DNA of 64,000 nucleotides. It comes from Alphaproteobacteria bacterium (lineage in GTDB: Bacteria; Pseudomonadota; Alphaproteobacteria; Bin95). This document shows, piece after piece, positions 10,845 through 59,701 of the stretch. The translations under genes were made by a program, and so were the position numbers. Within the stretch, counting starts at the first letter, position 1; each line of letters starts with the position of its first letter. Below the pieces are notes generated by a model. It ran no database searches, was not told the origin of the DNA, and saw only the letters and a program-made list of their open reading frames with translations. The stretch spans positions 5,248,001 through 5,312,000 of the forward strand of contig CBDBGH010000003.1 in NCBI GenBank assembly GCA_965205265.1, given 5' to 3'.

Positions 10845-11607
10845 ATGGTCCCTACGGACGGGGAAGGGAGAGGCAGGCGGGAAATGTCTCCGGGCTCGAA
10901 TTTCACCAGTCCTCCGGCATAGACGCGGCCGTCATCGAGCGTGACGGTGCTGTTGAGCCAGTCGATGATCCCCGTGATTTCATCCGTGGCCAGCGGGGCG
11001 CGGGGATAGAGCCCGTGCGCGATGTTCAGGTGGACCGCCCCGGCCTCGTTGCGGACGAAGACCGGAGCCCGGCGGGCCATGTAGGAACAGAGAATCGGGG
11101 CAGGTGGACGCAGGCGCACGCGCCACCATGGGCGGCGGTGGGCCGCTGTCCAGGAACGATGCGCTCCGCGTTCCCTAGCATATTGGAGAAAGCGGTCCAC
11201 CGCCCGGCGCCTGTCCGGGTCGAGGCAGTCGAGGTCCTCGGGCAGTACGATGAGCCTGTCGAGCGGGGTTTGCGGCCGGATCACCCCCTCGGGCGCTTCG
11301 AAGAGCTGACGGGCATGGGTGACGGCCGGCACCAGGAGGTCCGGAGGCAGGTCGGCGGTTCGGTCGCCGGCGATCCAGATGCGGTTGCCGCCCGTCACGA
11401 CGCCGCGATGAACACGGAAGAGCGTTCCGAGTTCGACAGGGTTGCGGCGCCTTCCGGAAGACGGGCGCCCGAGGCCTGTCCATTTCGGACTTTCGACAAA
11501 CCGCTTCAGTGCTACCGGTCGGCCGCCGCGAAGCATGCCGGGTCCGGACAGCCGACGAATGCGGTGAAGCCGCGGAAAGGGGCTGGCCTGCCCCGCGCGA
11601 AAGCAGA

Positions 11608-12944
11608 GGGGCTTACAAAGGTAAGTTGACATTGCCGTGTATCGTATCCAGTTCGGCCGCATGAGCGAGGTCTTCACGCACCGTCAGGTGGTATTCCGGC
11701 TTCTGCCGGGCCGCCGGTCCGTTTGGCGGCGTCTGGAGCGGGTTCTGGAGGCGCAGCGGCAGTTGTACAACGCCGCCCTTCAGGAACGCTGCGACGCCTG
11801 GCGTCTGGCCGGGCGGTCGCTCTCCTATATCGACCAGGCGAAGAGCCTGACGGTGTGCCGCCGGGAGGACCCCGAGATGGCGGCCGTTCCGGTCGCCGTG
11901 CAGCGCGGGACGCTGAAGCGCCTGGACGAGGCGATGAAGGGCTTCTTCCGGCGGGTGAAGGCGGGCCAGAAGCCGGGTTTTCCCCGGTTCCGGTCCCGCC
12001 GGCGGTTCGACAGCCTCTCCTTCGTCTCGGGGGTGAGGCTGGAGGACCGGGCCCGGCCCGGCGCGGACTGCGGGTCCGGCGCGGCCTGCCTGCGCCTTCC
12101 GGGTTTCGGCCCGCTTGCGGTCCGCCGGCGGGGCGGCAACCCGCATGGGGATGGCGAGCCGGTCTCGGCGGTGCTGAAGCGCGAGGCCGGCAAGTGGTAC
12201 GCCGTGGTCTGCTACCGGGTCCCGGCGCCGGCGGTCCACGAGGATGACGACAGCGTCATCGGGGTGGACATGAACGCTGGCCAGGTGGCGGCGAGCGGTC
12301 CGGGGCCGGAAGCCCGCCTGTTCCATGCCCCGGATACGCGGCGGCTGGAGGCGAGGGCGAAGCGCCTTGCCCGGCGTCTGGCGCGCCAGAAGCGCGGCTC
12401 CGGGCGCCGGGAGCGCACCCGCGCCCGTCTGGCGAAGACGAGGCGGCGCCTTTCCGGGATGCGGTGCGACTGGCGCCACCATGTCTCGCGGACAGTCGCC
12501 GACGCCGCCCATACCGTCGCCGTCGAGGACCTCCGGGTCCGGAACATGACGCGCAGCGCCCGGGGCACGACAGAGGAGCCGGGCGCCCGGGTCCGGCAGA
12601 AGGCCGGGCTCAACCGCGTCATCCTGGCCACGGGATGGGCGGAACTGCGCTTCATGTTCGGCTACAAGGCGGGACGGCTGCTCGCGGTCGACCCGGCCCA
12701 TACCAGCCGGACCTGCGCCGCCTGCGGCCATGTCGATGCCGGCTCGCGGCGTTCGCGGGCCGAATTCCAGTGCACGGCCTGCGGCCATGCGGACCATGCC
12801 GACGCGAATGCCGGCAGCAACATCCGGCGTCGGGGACTGGCGCTGCTGCACGGGGAGGGGCGTTCCGGCTTGCGGACCCCTGCGATCCGTGAAAACGCAG
12901 GGATGCTGGCGGCATGACGCCGTCAACTCATCTTTGTAAGGCCC
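11608..12944 (+). mobile_element. Non-autonomous TIR element carrying tnpB, copy 1
   Basis: TIRs GGGGCTTACAAAGGTAAGTTGAC / GTCAACTCATCTTTGTAAGGCCC; 8-bp TSD AAAGCAGA; 1337 bp. Confidence 0.95.
11661..12917 (+). CDS. tnpB: RNA-guided endonuclease TnpB (IS200/IS605 OrfB family)
   Basis: RuvC I GVDMN, RuvC II VAVEDL, Zn ribbon CAAC...CTAC, RuvC III HADANA; KPGFPRF. Confidence 0.93.
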   Translation: MSEVFTHRQVVFRLLPGRRSVWRRLERVLEAQRQLYNAALQERCDAWRLAGRSLSYIDQAKSLTVCRREDPEMAAVPVAVQRGTLKRLDEAMKGFFRRVKAGQKPGFPRFRSRRRFDSLSFVSGVRLEDRARPGADCGSGAACLRLPGFGPLAVRRRGGNPHGDGEPVSAVLKREAGKWYAVVCYRVPAPAVHEDDDSVIGVDMNAGQVAASGPGPEARLFHAPDTRRLEARAKRLARRLARQKRGSGRRERTRARLAKTRRRLSGMRCDWRHHVSRTVADAAHTVAVEDLRVRNMTRSARGTTEEPGARVRQKAGLNRVILATGWAELRFMFGYKAGRLLAVDPAHTSRTCAACGHVDAGSRRSRAEFQCTACGHADHADANAGSNIRRRGLALLHGEGRSGLRTPAIRENAGMLAA

Positions 12945-13845
12945 AAAGCAGACTATCGCCGCGCTGGCCTGGATGCCCGGGAAGATATCGGCGGCCGGGT
13001 CGATGACATGCAGGGAGGAAAGCCCCAGGGGACCCGCGGTGAAGAGGGTCCGCAGCACCGCCCCATAACCGGTATGGAGCCATTCCGCGGGCAGCAGCAT
13101 CGCGCCGTAGTCGCCGGGCCGGGCGAGTCCGCATATCGCAAGCATGAAATGGACGTAGAGCCCGGAAAGGCGGCTGAAGGGCAAACGCAGGTCGGCCGCC
13201 CGTGCCGCGGCAAGGTCTTTCCGGCCGCGGTCTATATCGTGGTGCCTCACCCATGGCGGGTTGCCGATAAACAGGGTCGGGCCCGGGGCGGGGCCCGGGT
13301 CGGCGGCGAGAAAGTCCCGGGTCTCCAGCCGGAGCCGGTCGCAGAGGCCGTTCAAGCGCGCGTTGGCGCGAAGCAGCCGGGCGCTGTTTCTGTCGGTCTC
13401 GAACGCGACAAGTTCGGCCGCCGGAAAGCGCTTGGCGGCGGCGAGACCGAACCGGCCCGTTCCGGCGCCCGGATCGACAATGCGCCGCGGCGATCCTGTG
13501 CGGGCGGCCCAATCCGTCATCGCGTCGACGATGGCGGACGGGGTCAGCACGGCGCCGGCGGTGCGGCGCTCGGCAGGACTGCGAAGGCGCATGAGCATTT
13601 CGCCCAGAGGGTCGCCGCCATCGGCAATCCGCCGGCGCAGGGCGGCGATGGCGGGGTCCGGACAGGGCCGACCGTCGTCGAGCGAACGGGCCAGCGCAAC
13701 CAGCGACTGCATGGAGGTCGGGGTTTGTAATGCCATGCCCGGACTGTCGCCGGGACACCTGAAAACTCAAAAAGCGGTCCGCGCTGTGCGGCACGGGGTC
13801 CGGGGCTTCGTTACCGGATCCCTGGACAGCGCCCGGCTGTTACTC

Positions 13846-17883: not shown

Positions 17884-18828
17884 ATGAGCGCCTTCATCTG
17901 CAACGAGACGCATATCGCGACCTGCGCGGAGATCGTCCGGACCCTGGGGCCGGCCGAGGTCCGGGAGATGGAACGCGGCGACATCGCAGCCGTCCTCGCC
18001 CTGGAGAACATGAAGAGCGTCGCCTTCCGCTATGGCCCGGAAGGTCAGGAGATCTACGACAGAATGATGGCTCCGATGATCGGGCAGGGCTTCACGGTGC
18101 TCAGGGGCGGGCCCGCCGAAGAGGATCCGCTGTCGGAAATGCTGCCGGGCGGGCAGACGGGGCGGGAATATGCCGCGTCCTGCCGTCTTGCCCGGCCGAT
18201 CGTCGAATACAGCCCGGCCGAAGCCCATGCCTGGCTGTCCTGTCTCGAGTACCAGAGCTGCGAGCATCCAGGGTGGGAGGGCTGCGAGGCGCGCGCCTGG
18301 ATCCATGCCGTCCAGCATGGTCTTGCCCTCCGGATCAGGGACGGGCTGCTGGGTGGGCGGGAGGTCCGGGATATCGGGGGAAAGCCGCTGCATCATGGAC
18401 AGGTCGTGCTGTGCAGGGAGGTGCATATGGCGACCTGTGCATCGATCCTGGAGCATTGCGGCCTGTATGTCCTGATGGACCGGTCGTATGGGGATATCCT
18501 GGAAGGGCTCGTCGAGGCGAACCTCAATGCGCTCGAGGCCGAAGGGATGGGCATGGCGCAGAGCAACCGTCGCAGGCATCGCATGAGGTGCCGCGTGGCC
18601 GGGCCGGTCGATACCAGCCCGCTGGAGGCCCATGCCCTTTTGAGCTGCGTGCGCGACAATTGCCGAGCGGATCCCGGGCCGGAGCAGACCCCGGTCGCGG
18701 AGTGGCTGGATGACGGGTTGCTTTCGATAGCCAAGGAGATGAGGCGGGAGGCGCTTGGCGGGCGGCATGTCTGGGAGGCGCCGGAACTGCTTGACTCGCC
18801 CGATGCCGGAGAGGCACCCTCGCCGTAG
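17884..18828 (+). CDS. Paralog of 16949-17833
   Basis: Identical SAFICNETHIATCA N-terminus; LEYQSCEHPGW. Confidence 0.75.
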   Translation: MSAFICNETHIATCAEIVRTLGPAEVREMERGDIAAVLALENMKSVAFRYGPEGQEIYDRMMAPMIGQGFTVLRGGPAEEDPLSEMLPGGQTGREYAASCRLARPIVEYSPAEAHAWLSCLEYQSCEHPGWEGCEARAWIHAVQHGLALRIRDGLLGGREVRDIGGKPLHHGQVVLCREVHMATCASILEHCGLYVLMDRSYGDILEGLVEANLNALEAEGMGMAQSNRRRHRMRCRVAGPVDTSPLEAHALLSCVRDNCRADPGPEQTPVAEWLDDGLLSIAKEMRREALGGRHVWEAPELLDSPDAGEAPSP

Positions 18829-18832
18829 CCGC

Positions 18833-19351
18833 ATGGATGGTTTCCACAGCCTTTTCCCGGACGAGCCGGCCGCGCGCGCCTGGTTCGAGGACGGCCGCTG
18901 GCCGCACGGGCGGTTCTGTCCGCAATGCGGTTCGGCGCGCACCCGGCCGGTGCCGAACGAGCGGCCGGCCCCCTATCACTGCACGTCCTGCCGCACCTAT
19001 TTTTCAGTGCGTTGGGGGACCATGCTGCACAGAAGCAACCTGCCGTTGCGCAAATGGGCGATGGCGATTCATCTCATGTCCGCAAGTACAGGGCGCAACG
19101 GGGTTCCCGGTTGTGTCGCGATGGGCCGCTGTCTCGACATCAATCCGCGCTCCGCGGACATGGCCGTGAACAAGATAAGGCGGGCGGTCGCGGAGCAGAT
19201 CGGTTCGGGCGGGGGAAACCCGGATGGCCTCATAGACGCGGACGTCGAGGACATACGCGACGCCCTTCTGGGCATCGTCCCGCACGGGAGGGAGGCCCAG
19301 CTCCCGGAGGATTGGGAGGACCTGGATGTCCTATTGCAGGAGTCCCTCTAG
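18833..19351 (+). CDS. IS1595-transposase-derived zinc-ribbon/HTH protein lacking the DDE domain
   Basis: FPDEPAARAWFE..RWP...CPQCGS...YHCTSCRTYFSVR.GT..H.SNLPLRKW. Confidence 0.75.
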   Translation: MDGFHSLFPDEPAARAWFEDGRWPHGRFCPQCGSARTRPVPNERPAPYHCTSCRTYFSVRWGTMLHRSNLPLRKWAMAIHLMSASTGRNGVPGCVAMGRCLDINPRSADMAVNKIRRAVAEQIGSGGGNPDGLIDADVEDIRDALLGIVPHGREAQLPEDWEDLDVLLQESL

Positions 19352-35668: not shown

Positions 35669-36351
35669 GAACGAAAAGGGGTTCGATAACGGAGTGATCC
35701 GGAACAGAAGATCGGAGGTATCGGGAACGTTGCCGTAGGGGGCGGCGGGCGTCCCGCCGAGGGGGATTGCGGCGGAGGCGGCAAGGACCGCCACGAGCCG
35801 GATGCCGCGACGACATGCCGGCCGGGTGGCGGGGCGGTCCTTGTCCGGGGGCCGGTGCATACAGGGATATGCCGGGATGTTCGCCCGGATGGCAAGGGAT
35901 GCCGACTATCGGGTCCCCGGGAATTCCCGTTGGCCGGGCGGTTTTATGGGGAAACCGGGGCGAAAGCGTACGCGGCTGGAATTCAAAGGCGATAATATCG
36001 CCGGGAGGTCACCTGGTACAGGAATGGAGCCGACATGCAGGTCAACATGGAAATAGCCGAAGCGCGGGAAGGAGAGGTCCTCATCGTTGCGCCGTCCGGA
36101 CGTCTCGACAGCGCATCGTCGCCGGTCCTTGAGGGCCGCCTGAAGCAGAAGATCGGAAGCGGCGAAGCCAGGGCCCTCCTGCTCGACCTGGCTGGCCTGG
36201 CCTATATGAGTTCGGCGGGCATGCGGGTGCTCATGCTTGCAGCGAGGTCGAGCAAGTCCGAAGGCGTAGCCTTTGCCCTCTGCGGCGTGCGGCCGGAGGT
36301 CAACCAGATCCTGGCCATGAGCGGAATGGACCGGCTCTACACCTTCTACGA

Positions 36352-37688
36352 GGGGCTTACAAAGGTAAGTTGACATTGCCGTGTATCGTATCCAGTTCGG
36401 CCGCATGAGCGAGGTCTTCACGCACCGTCAGGTGGTATTCCGGCTTCTGCCGGGCCGCCGGTCCGTTTGGCGGCGTCTGGAGCGGGTTCTGGAGGCGCAG
36501 CGGCAGTTGTACAACGCCGCCCTTCAGGAACGCTGCGACGCCTGGCATCTGGCCGGGCGGTCGCTCTCCTATATCGACCAGGCGAAGAGCCTGACGGTGT
36601 GCCGCCGGGAGGACCCCGAGATGGCGGCCGTTCCGGTCGCCGTGCAGCGCGGGACGCTGAAGCGCCTGGACGAGGCGATGAAGGGCTTCTTCCGGCGGGT
36701 GAAGGCGGGCCAGAAGCCGGGTTTTCCCCGGTTCCGGTCCCGCCGGCGGTTCGACAGCCTCTCCTTCGTCTCGGGGGTGAGGCTGGAGGACCGGGCCCGG
36801 CCCGGCGCGGACTGCGGGTCCGGCGCGGCCTGCCTGCGCCTTCCGGGTTTCGGCCCGCTTGCGGTCCGCCAGCGGGGCGGCAACCCGCATGGGGATGGCG
36901 AGCCGGTCTCGGCGGTGCTGAAGCGCGAGGCCGGCAAGTGGTACGCCGTGGTCTGCTACCGGGTCCCGGCGCCGGCGGTCCACGAGGATGACGACAGCGT
37001 CATCGGGGTGGACATGAACGCTGGCCAGGTGGCGGCGAGCGGTCCGGGGCCGGAAGCCCGCCTGTTCCATGCCCCGGATACGCGGCGGCTGGAGGCGAGG
37101 GCGAAGCGCCTTGCCCGGCGTCTGGCGCGCCAGAAGCGCGGCTCCGGGCGCCGGGAGCGCACCCGCGCCCGTCTGGCGAAGACGAGGCGGCGCCTTTCCG
37201 GGATGCGGTGCGACTGGCGCCACCATGTCTCGCGGACAGTCGCCGACGCCGCCCATACCGTCGCCGTCGAGGACCTCCGGGTCCGGAACATGACGCGCAG
37301 CGCCCGGGGCACGACAGAGGAGCCGGGCGCCCGGGTCCGGCAGAAGGCCGGGCTCAACCGCGTCATCCTGGCCACGGGATGGGCGGAACTGCGCTTCATG
37401 TTCGGCTACAAGGCGGGACGGCTGCTCGCGGTCGACCCGGCCCATACCAGCCGGACCTGCGCCGCCTGCGGCCATGTCGATGCCGGCTCGCGGCGTTCGC
37501 GGGCCGAATTCCAGTGCACGGCCTGCGGCCATGCGGACCATGCCGACGCGAATGCCGGCAGCAACATCCGGCGTCGGGGACTGGCGCTGCTGCACGGGGA
37601 GGGGCGTTCCGGCTTGCGGACCCCTGCGATCCGTGAAAACGCAGGGATGCTGGCGGCATGACGCCGTCAACTCATCTTTGTAAGGCCC
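36352..37688 (+). mobile_element. Non-autonomous TIR element carrying tnpB, copy 2
   Basis: Same TIRs; 8-bp TSD TTCTACGA; two amino-acid differences from copies 1 and 3. Confidence 0.95.
36405..37661 (+). CDS. tnpB: TnpB endonuclease
   Basis: As copy 1, with R>H and R>Q substitutions. Confidence 0.93.
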   Translation: MSEVFTHRQVVFRLLPGRRSVWRRLERVLEAQRQLYNAALQERCDAWHLAGRSLSYIDQAKSLTVCRREDPEMAAVPVAVQRGTLKRLDEAMKGFFRRVKAGQKPGFPRFRSRRRFDSLSFVSGVRLEDRARPGADCGSGAACLRLPGFGPLAVRQRGGNPHGDGEPVSAVLKREAGKWYAVVCYRVPAPAVHEDDDSVIGVDMNAGQVAASGPGPEARLFHAPDTRRLEARAKRLARRLARQKRGSGRRERTRARLAKTRRRLSGMRCDWRHHVSRTVADAAHTVAVEDLRVRNMTRSARGTTEEPGARVRQKAGLNRVILATGWAELRFMFGYKAGRLLAVDPAHTSRTCAACGHVDAGSRRSRAEFQCTACGHADHADANAGSNIRRRGLALLHGEGRSGLRTPAIRENAGMLAA

Positions 37689-37726
37689 TTCTACGATGAC
37701 CGTGAGGCTGGCGTGGCGGGTATGGC

Positions 37727-57989: not shown

Positions 57990-58351
57990 GGGGCGTGTTC
58001 CTCCGGACACAGGGTTGGCGGCTGAAGTCTCCGGGAGAAGCCTAGTCCGGCGCACCGGGAAAGTGCAACTCCCGGACCTGAATTGCCGGAACGCCGAGGT
58101 GCGGGCGGACATGGTCATGCGGACCGGGAACATTCCGCCAGGACGCTGCCGGCGACGCTGAAACACCGGGAGAGCGGGAAGGCTCCTGATGGCCCGAGTA
58201 GCCCGAGTGAACTGCCGCTGCGACCGAACGCGCATCGCATGGTCCATTTTCGGCGCGCCCAGGTCGGTTAGTATTCCCTGTGGGCGCGGCCCGATCCACC
58301 CGAAAGACGGGCGCAGCGGAGCCGCCGCACAAACCCTGGGAGGAAAGGAAA

Positions 58352-59688
58352 GGGGCTTACAAAGGTAAGTTGACATTGCCGTGTATCGTATCCAGTTCGG
58401 CCGCATGAGCGAGGTCTTCACGCACCGTCAGGTGGTATTCCGGCTTCTGCCGGGCCGCCGGTCCGTTTGGCGGCGTCTGGAGCGGGTTCTGGAGGCGCAG
58501 CGGCAGTTGTACAACGCCGCCCTTCAGGAACGCTGCGACGCCTGGCGTCTGGCCGGGCGGTCGCTCTCCTATATCGACCAGGCGAAGAGCCTGACGGTGT
58601 GCCGCCGGGAGGACCCCGAGATGGCGGCCGTTCCGGTCGCCGTGCAGCGCGGGACGCTGAAGCGCCTGGACGAGGCGATGAAGGGCTTCTTCCGGCGGGT
58701 GAAGGCGGGCCAGAAGCCGGGTTTTCCCCGGTTCCGGTCCCGCCGGCGGTTCGACAGCCTCTCCTTCGTCTCGGGGGTGAGGCTGGAGGACCGGGCCCGG
58801 CCCGGCGCGGACTGCGGGTCCGGCGCGGCCTGCCTGCGCCTTCCGGGTTTCGGCCCGCTTGCGGTCCGCCGGCGGGGCGGCAACCCGCATGGGGATGGCG
58901 AGCCGGTCTCGGCGGTGCTGAAGCGCGAGGCCGGCAAGTGGTACGCCGTGGTCTGCTACCGGGTCCCGGCGCCGGCGGTCCACGAGGATGACGACAGCGT
59001 CATCGGGGTGGACATGAACGCTGGCCAGGTGGCGGCGAGCGGTCCGGGGCCGGAAGCCCGCCTGTTCCATGCCCCGGATACGCGGCGGCTGGAGGCGAGG
59101 GCGAAGCGCCTTGCCCGGCGTCTGGCGCGCCAGAAGCGCGGCTCCGGGCGCCGGGAGCGCACCCGCGCCCGTCTGGCGAAGACGAGGCGGCGCCTTTCCG
59201 GGATGCGGTGCGACTGGCGCCACCATGTCTCGCGGACAGTCGCCGACGCCGCCCATACCGTCGCCGTCGAGGACCTCCGGGTCCGGAACATGACGCGCAG
59301 CGCCCGGGGCACGACAGAGGAGCCGGGCGCCCGGGTCCGGCAGAAGGCCGGGCTCAACCGCGTCATCCTGGCCACGGGATGGGCGGAACTGCGCTTCATG
59401 TTCGGCTACAAGGCGGGACGGCTGCTCGCGGTCGACCCGGCCCATACCAGCCGGACCTGCGCCGCCTGCGGCCATGTCGATGCCGGCTCGCGGCGTTCGC
59501 GGGCCGAATTCCAGTGCACGGCCTGCGGCCATGCGGACCATGCCGACGCGAATGCCGGCAGCAACATCCGGCGTCGGGGACTGGCGCTGCTGCACGGGGA
59601 GGGGCGTTCCGGCTTGCGGACCCCTGCGATCCGTGAAAACGCAGGGATGCTGGCGGCATGACGCCGTCAACTCATCTTTGTAAGGCCC
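58352..59688 (+). mobile_element. Non-autonomous TIR element carrying tnpB, copy 3
   Basis: Same TIRs; 8-bp TSD AAAGGAAA. Confidence 0.95.
58405..59661 (+). CDS. tnpB: TnpB endonuclease
   Basis: Protein identical to copy 1. Confidence 0.93.
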   Translation: MSEVFTHRQVVFRLLPGRRSVWRRLERVLEAQRQLYNAALQERCDAWRLAGRSLSYIDQAKSLTVCRREDPEMAAVPVAVQRGTLKRLDEAMKGFFRRVKAGQKPGFPRFRSRRRFDSLSFVSGVRLEDRARPGADCGSGAACLRLPGFGPLAVRRRGGNPHGDGEPVSAVLKREAGKWYAVVCYRVPAPAVHEDDDSVIGVDMNAGQVAASGPGPEARLFHAPDTRRLEARAKRLARRLARQKRGSGRRERTRARLAKTRRRLSGMRCDWRHHVSRTVADAAHTVAVEDLRVRNMTRSARGTTEEPGARVRQKAGLNRVILATGWAELRFMFGYKAGRLLAVDPAHTSRTCAACGHVDAGSRRSRAEFQCTACGHADHADANAGSNIRRRGLALLHGEGRSGLRTPAIRENAGMLAA

Positions 59689-59701
59689 AAAGGAAACCAT
59701 C

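Follow-up and report, generated by a model that had tools for sequence, protein, structure and literature searches.

How does a gene for an RNA-guided nuclease of the TnpB type come to lie, alone, between terminal inverted repeats (TIRs) and short target-site duplications (TSDs)? The question is raised by a stretch of 64,000 nt from an alphaproteobacterial genome (GCA_965205265.1, contig CBDBGH010000003.1, here C3), which spans C3:5248001-5312000 and is hereafter called the window; the host genome (G000) comprises 5.7 Mb with 68% GC. The window contains three copies of a 1337-bp cassette carrying tnpB. In the current study, we conclude that this cassette is very probably a non-autonomous DDE element of the IS1595 family, whose sole cargo is an intact tnpB together with a guide-RNA module and which is moved in trans. 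This reading builds on features that were all found: TIRs of the IS1595 type with 8-bp TSDs, an empty site, a candidate transposase gene at another place in the genome, a conserved nuclease and a covarying 3′ module. The features concerned are as follows, in window coordinates.

11600..11607, no strand: left TSD of copy 1, 8 bp, AAAGCAGA; right counterpart at 12945-12952
11608..12944, plus strand: cassette copy 1, 1337 bp; interrupts a minus-strand methyltransferase-like reading frame
11608..11630, plus strand: left TIR of copy 1, GGGGCTTACAAAGGTAAGTTGAC; 19/23 positions as in the TIR of the IS1595 element at C3:1919671-1922510 (see below)
11637..12917, plus strand: tnpB, 426 aa, GTG start; alternative start ATG at 11661, conserved region starting near residue 15
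12825..12944, plus strand: putative omegaRNA-like module formed by the 3′ end of tnpB and the right TIR; in the predicted fold, the inner TIR forms part of the last hairpin, beyond which an 8-nt tail, TAAGGCCC, reaches the element end
12922..12944, minus strand: right TIR of copy 1, GGGCCTTACAAAGATGAGTTGAC read inward; 20/23 positions as in the TIR of the same IS1595 element
36352..37688, plus strand: cassette copy 2; TSD TTCTACGA at 36344-36351 and 37689-37696
58352..59688, plus strand: cassette copy 3; TSD AAAGGAAA at 58344-58351 and 59689-59696

Cassette copies and their candidate IS1595 partner

The original prediction, made from the letters of the window, placed the three 1337-bp copies exactly at these coordinates and described 23-bp imperfect TIRs, a different perfect 8-bp TSD around each copy, and tnpB with an intact RuvC D/E/D triad as the only gene. 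All of this holds. The left and right TIRs agree at 20 of 23 positions, and the three TSDs are perfect, all different and directly abut the element ends. Copies 1 and 3 are identical in sequence, and copy 2 has two substitutions that change TnpB at R56H and R164Q. Across the genome there are seven full copies (99.85-100% identity) and one truncated copy of 518 bp, and a perfect 8-bp TSD brackets six of the seven. When copy 1 and one TSD were deleted in silico, a continuous minus-strand frame of 552 aa was restored, the N-terminal half of which matches the Eco57I/N6_Mtase/MTS models. Copy 3 separates a GGAGG-like ribosome-binding site from the ATG of the downstream gene; its flanks are absent from 16 other species genomes of the genus and present in its own genome only. 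Contigs from four other public runs end exactly at 11608 and 12944 and run on into the flanks of other copies, and none of these contigs spans an empty site at copy 1. The cassette is real and, since its copies are near-identical and one of them splits a methyltransferase reading frame, recently active.

Elements of the IS1595 family have TIRs that start with GGG, 8-bp TSDs, passenger genes and transposase-less derivatives, and their transposase combines a zinc ribbon with a DDE_Tnp_IS1595 domain. Spread of tnpB by a non-autonomous IS1595-type element with a trans-acting transposase had been proposed in the original prediction together with a genome search for the TIR. Such a search, with up to 6 mismatches allowed, yielded a candidate autonomous partner, a 2840-bp element (C3:1919671-1922510) with GGGGATTACAAAGATGACTTGAC at both ends and the TSD TCATGTTT. 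This element encodes a 332-aa protein with Zn_ribbon_IS1595 and DDE_Tnp_IS1595 (1.3e-41) domains, and its second gene is a lipoprotein-like passenger. The same search found about 15 pairs resembling miniature inverted-repeat transposable elements (MITEs), 192-586 bp long, with related TIRs and with perfect 8-bp TSDs in 11 of 15. The candidate partner with its 20/23 TIR match and 8-bp TSD, the MITEs and the near-identical copies support the proposal; the cassette has IS1595-family ends and a plausible trans partner in the same genome. A paralogue of the transposase (57% identity) is present in four near-identical chromosomal copies and two more diverged ones (one chromosomal, one on C1), with ends of a different TIR subtype, GGGGATTATATAC.., and the IS1595 elements of this genome carry other passengers.

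Several further observations concern the same elements. One full copy (C3:4855744-4857080) has no TSD and lies between the unlike flanks AACACGTT and AATGCGTA; the truncated copy, a 5′ fragment (C3:4849555-4850072), lies 5.7 kb upstream of it in the same orientation, and the two probably mark a rearrangement between copies. Cumulative GC skew places the origin of the C3 chromosome near 4.3-4.5 Mb and its terminus near 1.5 Mb. All eight cassette copies are in one replichore, and five full copies plus the truncated one fall within 4.69-5.31 Mb, a clustering that suggests either local hopping or an island-rich region; six of the eight are co-directional with replication, which is not informative as to strand bias. 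The inner end of the left TIR (11626-11631) reads TTGACA, a −35-like hexamer facing into tnpB, and TTGAC is kept in most family members, so the TIR may supply the promoter of tnpB. One TSD, TCATGTTT or its complement, is common to the IS1595 element and the following five MITEs, which points either to a strong target preference or to copies of another repeat as the insertion sites.

C3:42319-42552, 293197-293410, 5413311-5413544, 980248-980495, 1205672-1205919: MITEs with the TSD TCATGTTT or its complement

Between copies 1 and 2, at 18755-19351 (plus strand), the window also encodes a 198-aa protein with the IS1595 zinc ribbon (PF12760, 3.8e-07) and no DDE domain, which could be a transposase that has been truncated or a derivative that binds DNA on its own.

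TnpB relatives and the distribution of the ends

Between the ends, tnpB is the sole gene identified. The other open reading frames (ORFs) listed for the cassette overlap it, as is expected because the DNA is GC-rich. The protein contains the OrfB_IS605 (PF01385, 6.7e-14) and Cas12f1-like TNB (PF07282, 9.6e-14) domains and can be aligned along its whole length with structures of ISDra2 TnpB (8h1j, E 3e-25; 8bf8, E 3.7e-25; 8bf8 and 8exa are one and the same sequence). The RuvC residues D211, E297 and D389 and the CxxC...CxxC zinc finger (C360/363/379/382) are intact, and among 58 intact family proteins the triad and the four cysteines are invariant in all 39 from the TIR group and in all 19 others.

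An alignment-based scan, in which each species was represented by one genome, gave 80 loci with relatives of this protein. TIRs of the form GGG(G/A)NTTAT...TGAC, spaced 1.3-1.5 kb apart, bracket relatives down to 34% protein identity, in Thalassobaculaceae, Paracoccaceae, other Alphaproteobacteria, Pseudomonadales, Rhodothermales/Bacteroidota and Dehalococcoidia. Within a single genome of the same genus, homologues of 78%, 76% and ~60% identity sit in elements of 1317-1351 bp with the same type of TIR, two of the three with perfect TSDs. Five multi-copy genomes (G037-G041) contain 68, 32, 60, 14 and 20 TnpB matches, respectively, at E<=1e-30; with copies from these five included, 40 distinct elements have perfect 8-bp TSDs. 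For one element (L026) an orthologous empty site was found, in a related genome with contiguous flanks and a single copy of the 8-mer. As to the question posed with the original prediction, whether a whole TnpB clade has these ends, the TIR/TSD architecture is a property of such a clade, across Alpha- and Gammaproteobacteria, Rhodothermota, Bacteroidota and Chloroflexota. Many of the matches in the metagenome-assembled genomes (MAGs) G037-G041 are 5′-deleted copies that cover approximately residues 145-400.

The clade appears to travel without its transposase. When 96 loci were searched with 1.5-3.5-kb flanks, an IS1595 transposase was absent in cis from 95, and the single match (L068) is a separate insertion sequence (IS) 12 bp away with its own, different TIRs. 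No composite element, with TnpB and transposase inside one pair of ends, occurs among the 96. Elsewhere in the genome, a PF12762 transposase is encoded in all five multi-copy genomes, one of which has a single match, vs. one of 14 control genomes. The IS1595 elements of these five genomes were viewed with 1.5-kb flanks, so that one end was visible for most; the visible TIRs are of the same type as those of the cassettes, and one agrees at 23 of 24 positions with the TIR of a TnpB element.

Homologues lacking TSDs and associated with a Y1 or serine recombinase had been named as what would speak against a DDE-borne tnpB. No such recombinase was seen adjoining any TIR-bearing copy, but relatives without TIRs do exist. 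About 17 actinobacterial relatives (~40% identity) have no TIRs and show IS605-like conserved boundaries, and one of them (L102) has a Y1_Tnp fragment upstream of tnpB. Their left boundary starts with CCATCAG, within which the split between target-adjacent motif (TAM) and left end is not placeable. A quick maximum-likelihood tree was built from the 58 intact proteins, with rows that contained stops or short matches dropped, and rooted at its midpoint. One side holds 37 rows that bear TIRs or a right end, plus L040, whose contig stops at the gene; on the opposite side are the 17 actinobacterial rows and three more.

The ends themselves vary in ways that bear on how such elements arise. In a Thalassobaculaceae MAG (L027, L042, L057) and a Paracoccaceae MAG (L045, L071, L074, L084), left ends resemble right-end sequence. 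In some subfamilies the left end repeats the right end in inverted form over a greater length, with the hairpin at the tnpB stop codon included (21/21), and in others a 31-nt subterminal inverted repeat matching the 3′ end of the ORF lies ~160 nt upstream of tnpB. It thus seems that right ends were the source from which the left ends of the elements in these two MAGs were rebuilt. More distant TnpB genes (L086 3387-4679, L194, L196), in an Acidimicrobiaceae MAG and a Pseudomonadales MAG, lie between TIRs of a second type unrelated to the first, GGGTAGTG...GAC (21-22/24), with a 6-bp ATTGAC repeat flanking L086. This second type may represent an independent capture of TnpB by a TIR transposon.

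The 3′ module and the base beside the left duplication

The last ~120 nt of nine related elements share a common fold; its terminal hairpin joins the closing stretch of the tnpB ORF to the inner portion of the right TIR and leaves an 8-nt tail before the boundary. A covariance model derived from these nine sequences gave 72 matches in 90 sources, each ending at the right terminus defined by the TIR, and zero matches in the actinobacterial loci. In the resulting alignment 86.8% of cells are paired, vs. 38-43% when partners were slid by 1-3 columns; under the same displacement, double-change cells fell from 360 to 23-94 and the covariation score from 0.418 to 0.05-0.07. None of 500 shuffles attained the observed values of pairing or covariation. 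The right and left TIRs differ at some positions of the hairpin (83 cells in 45 elements), and at these the right-end base pairs in 68 of 83 cells while the left-type base would do so in 36. It therefore seems that the right TIR serves both the transposase and the RNA. Rfam (E up to 10) returned only sub-threshold chance matches, the best being LAGLIDADG-2 with 29.7 bits against a cut-off of 94.9 bits, and a single-sequence fold of the last 220 nt (z = -0.92) was uninformative in DNA this GC-rich. Because the catalytic residues are kept throughout the clade and the last ~120 nt contain a covarying RNA structure, the TnpB cargo looks functional rather than decaying.

The original prediction stated that no conserved TAM precedes the insertion sites. 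That statement rested on three sites and is probably wrong. Reading in the orientation of tnpB, we define position −1 as the base immediately 5′ of the left TSD copy. This base is G in 34 of 36 elements and in all four that were added later, i.e., in 38 of 40. The 34/36 exceed the 31% G of the flanks (binomial p = 1.6e-15), the mirror position, where C follows the right TSD in 11 of 36 (Fisher p = 1.6e-8), and the equivalent position at MITE ends of the host genome, with 8 of 22 (Fisher p = 2.6e-6). Nor does the G occur at six transposase-proximal IS1595 ends from other genomes or at the four paralogue copies in this one, each with one end visible. In the window, copies 1 (position 11599) and 3 have the G, and copy 2 has a C, one of the two exceptions among the 40. 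The TSD itself is rich in A and T at positions 1-3 and 6-8, with either of the two at position 2 in all 36. We propose that the G at position −1 is a TAM-like mark and a candidate minimal TAM.

Mechanism, rival readings and known systems

Taken together, these features can be fitted to a mechanism in which an IS1595 transposase encoded elsewhere binds the 23-bp TIRs, moves the cassette and leaves 8-bp TSDs. The best candidate for the mobilizer would be the 332-aa protein of C3:1919671-1922510, to which we provisionally attribute catalysis. By analogy with canonical TnpB, transcription would proceed out of the right end, and if the guide starts at the element boundary, it would consist of the TSD as its first 8 nt followed by the downstream right flank. 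The only full match of such a guide would be the unoccupied allele, where the 8-mer is preceded by G, the presumed TAM. Where the cassette is already present, the DNA that encodes the guide follows the last base of the TIR, a C, and would be protected from TnpB; a G at the last TAM position would separate target from self because the occupied locus has that C there. TnpB could then cut unoccupied copies, whether on sister or extra chromosome copies or on incoming DNA, and the insertion would become fixed, or be restored, through recombination with the occupied copy. The claim that TAM-plus-flank homing cannot apply unchanged to such an element may thus be too strict, since homing of this kind could work if the TSD supplied the first 8 nt of the guide.

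We tentatively go one step further, at somewhat less than even chances, and suggest that this TnpB clade was re-fitted to a TSD-making DDE transposon. Its scaffold would have absorbed the right TIR, its guide would start with the TSD, its TAM would have relaxed to G, and the whole would act as a drive that converts unoccupied alleles within cells or populations. With the TAM relaxed to a single G, roughly a third of near-random transposase insertions would be open to such a drive, and the conversion of unoccupied alleles by TnpB would explain why 38 of 40 surviving insertions lie behind a G.

Several points weigh against these interpretations. The TIRs of the partner are similar, not identical, to those of the cassette, and a single intact partner copy is present. 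In the quick tree, the split between TIR-bearing and TIR-less TnpB has a support of only 67% in the Shimodaira-Hasegawa-like approximate likelihood ratio test (SH-aLRT). Covariation was counted on an alignment that is fitted to the model and partly coding, which makes it supportive rather than proof, and the production of the RNA, its 3′ extent and its flank-derived guide are inferred only. The controls for the G are small and belong to other TIR subtypes, and five of the 11 MITE insertions have one target 8-mer in common, which makes them a weaker control. A TAM of 1 nt is unusually short for TnpB, and the G could alternatively be a target preference of the partner transposase. Finally, DDE excision already leaves a double-strand break, so that the benefit of TnpB is less obvious here than in IS605, as the available text of a 2026 review indicates (PMC13565253).

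The strongest rival holds that tnpB is a passive passenger of an IS1595-type cassette without any role in its spread, and that the G stems from the transposase acting on these particular ends, whose target preference would be asymmetric. Unrelated cargo is common among IS1595 elements, and those of the host genome do bear other passengers; moreover, DDE excision requires no extra nuclease, according to the portion of the review consulted (PMC13565253). Against this, the catalytic and zinc-finger residues are kept in 39 of 39 intact proteins across phyla, and a covarying RNA module has been retained whose demands seem to have shaped the right TIR. The G is found only on the side and strand that a TAM predicts (38/40 vs. 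11/36 at the mirror position) and is not enriched at MITE ends (8/22), even if these controls are small. Symmetric transpososomes, in general, also give symmetric target preferences. On balance we regard a purely passive tnpB as unlikely.

The end structure itself invites two other explanations, that an ordinary tnpB-only (IS1341-type) element of the IS200/IS605 or IS607 kind has TIRs and TSDs by coincidence, or that the copies are an artefact of assembly or duplication. TnpB is the signature gene of IS200/IS605 and IS607, and the TIR-less actinobacterial relatives, with their one Y1_Tnp fragment, are in keeping with such a background. Coincidence would nevertheless have to account for 40 elements flanked by perfect 8-bp duplications that are unrelated in sequence, any one of which would arise by chance in ~1 of 65,536 cases, for 23-bp TIRs that the cassette has in common with a bona fide IS1595 element, for the lack of Y1 or serine recombinases seen adjoining TIR-bearing copies and for an empty site with a single 8-mer; this explanation is effectively refuted. 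An artefact, the other concern raised with the original prediction, might be suspected from copies that are 100% identical and from two that start exactly 22,000 bp apart. It is even harder to credit, given seven copies with different flanks and different TSDs, contigs of four other public runs that stop at this very pair of ends and show identical flanks, and diverged family members in many genomes.

For IS605 and IS607, the usual view is that TnpB earns its keep by cutting again the empty donor site that excision leaves without a scar. Whether and how it could help a DDE transposon, which leaves a break and makes TSDs, is a point raised again in the 2026 review, which in the text consulted calls the DDE association rare on the grounds that DDE excision already breaks DNA and that TAM recognition is inflexible (PMC13565253). 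The present clade offers a clean natural test case, in which recent insertions number in the dozens per genome, the trans partner can be named, one TIR appears constrained by the RNA module and a one-sided G predicts a minimal TAM. If the drive reading is true, the clade would parallel, among prokaryotes, the solution seen in Fanzors and would directly show how OMEGA systems can operate together with DDE transposons. In addition, a compact (~400-aa) TnpB with a near-absent TAM requirement would interest genome editing.

Compared with canonical systems, the cassette resembles ISDra2 TnpB (8h1j, 8bf8, 8exa) in full-length homology, in the RuvC triad and zinc finger, and in a putative 3′ RNA module that abuts the element boundary. 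Unlike ISDra2 and other IS200/IS605 members, it has neither a Y1 TnpA nor subterminal IS605-type ends, it makes TSDs, and its candidate TAM is a single G, vs. the 5-nt TTGAT of ISDra2 cited in the sections of the review consulted (PMC13565253). More generally, IS200/IS605 and IS607 elements have no TIRs, produce no TSDs, rely on a Y1 or serine TnpA and insert at a fixed motif of 4-5 nt, whereas here TIRs and TSDs are present and only a G is conserved. The likeness to IS1595 ISs and MITEs lies in the ~23-bp TIRs starting with GGG, the AT-rich 8-bp TSDs, the cargo between the ends, and the presence of non-autonomous copies and MITEs in the genome. The cassette departs from them in that its cargo is an RNA-guided nuclease, an RNA module overlaps and appears to constrain one TIR, and the G is one-sided (MITEs are without it); unlike autonomous IS1595 ISs, it has no transposase of its own between the ends.

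Among eukaryotic systems, Fanzor1 and Fanzor2* elements are also non-autonomous TIR/TSD transposons that carry only a TnpB-like nuclease, and in the text consulted the scaffolds of their RNAs incorporate TIR as well as TSD (Yoon et al., 2023; NAR, PMC10711439). Fanzors are eukaryotic or viral according to the same text, and the TSD is folded into their scaffold, whereas that of the cassette is 8 bp long and variable, and would consequently have to be the start of the guide and not part of the scaffold.

The closest precedent is prokaryotic. In the text covered, Altae-Tran et al. described six DDE-associated TnpB branches (DDE-1 to DDE-6), all with inverted terminal repeats, inferred that these branches are actively mobile, and proposed that solo TnpBs, whose ends are nearly the same, are mobilized in trans (Altae-Tran et al., 2023; PNAS, PMC10691335). 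As far as that text goes, the present clade is alike in having TnpB inside an inverted-repeat transposon, the 3′ end of tnpB near the transposon end, and solo copies for which mobility in trans is proposed. The general idea of DDE-linked, trans-mobilized solo TnpBs is thus already in print, and the novelty implied by the original prediction was overstated. Differences exist as well. The family named for the TnpB association in the portions consulted is IS630 (PMC10691335), the 2026 review lists ISL2, IS630 and IS1031 in its corresponding portions (PMC13565253), and IS1595 is not among the families so named; the present clade, moreover, has no cis transposase across the 96 loci, and neither a TAM-like G nor a TIR-embedded hairpin figures in the text of Altae-Tran et al. 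covered here. A literature search found no description of IS1595-ended TnpB elements; it did not extend to the supplements of PMC10691335, which may list the clade. The solo cassettes have their end type in common with IS1595 elements and may or may not correspond to one of DDE-1 to DDE-6. What is apparently new here is a TnpB clade that is IS1595-ended and, as it seems, always non-autonomous, with a putative guide-RNA module that looks fitted to its ends. The TIR-embedded RNA module and the TAM-like G, both open to direct testing, add to its interest.

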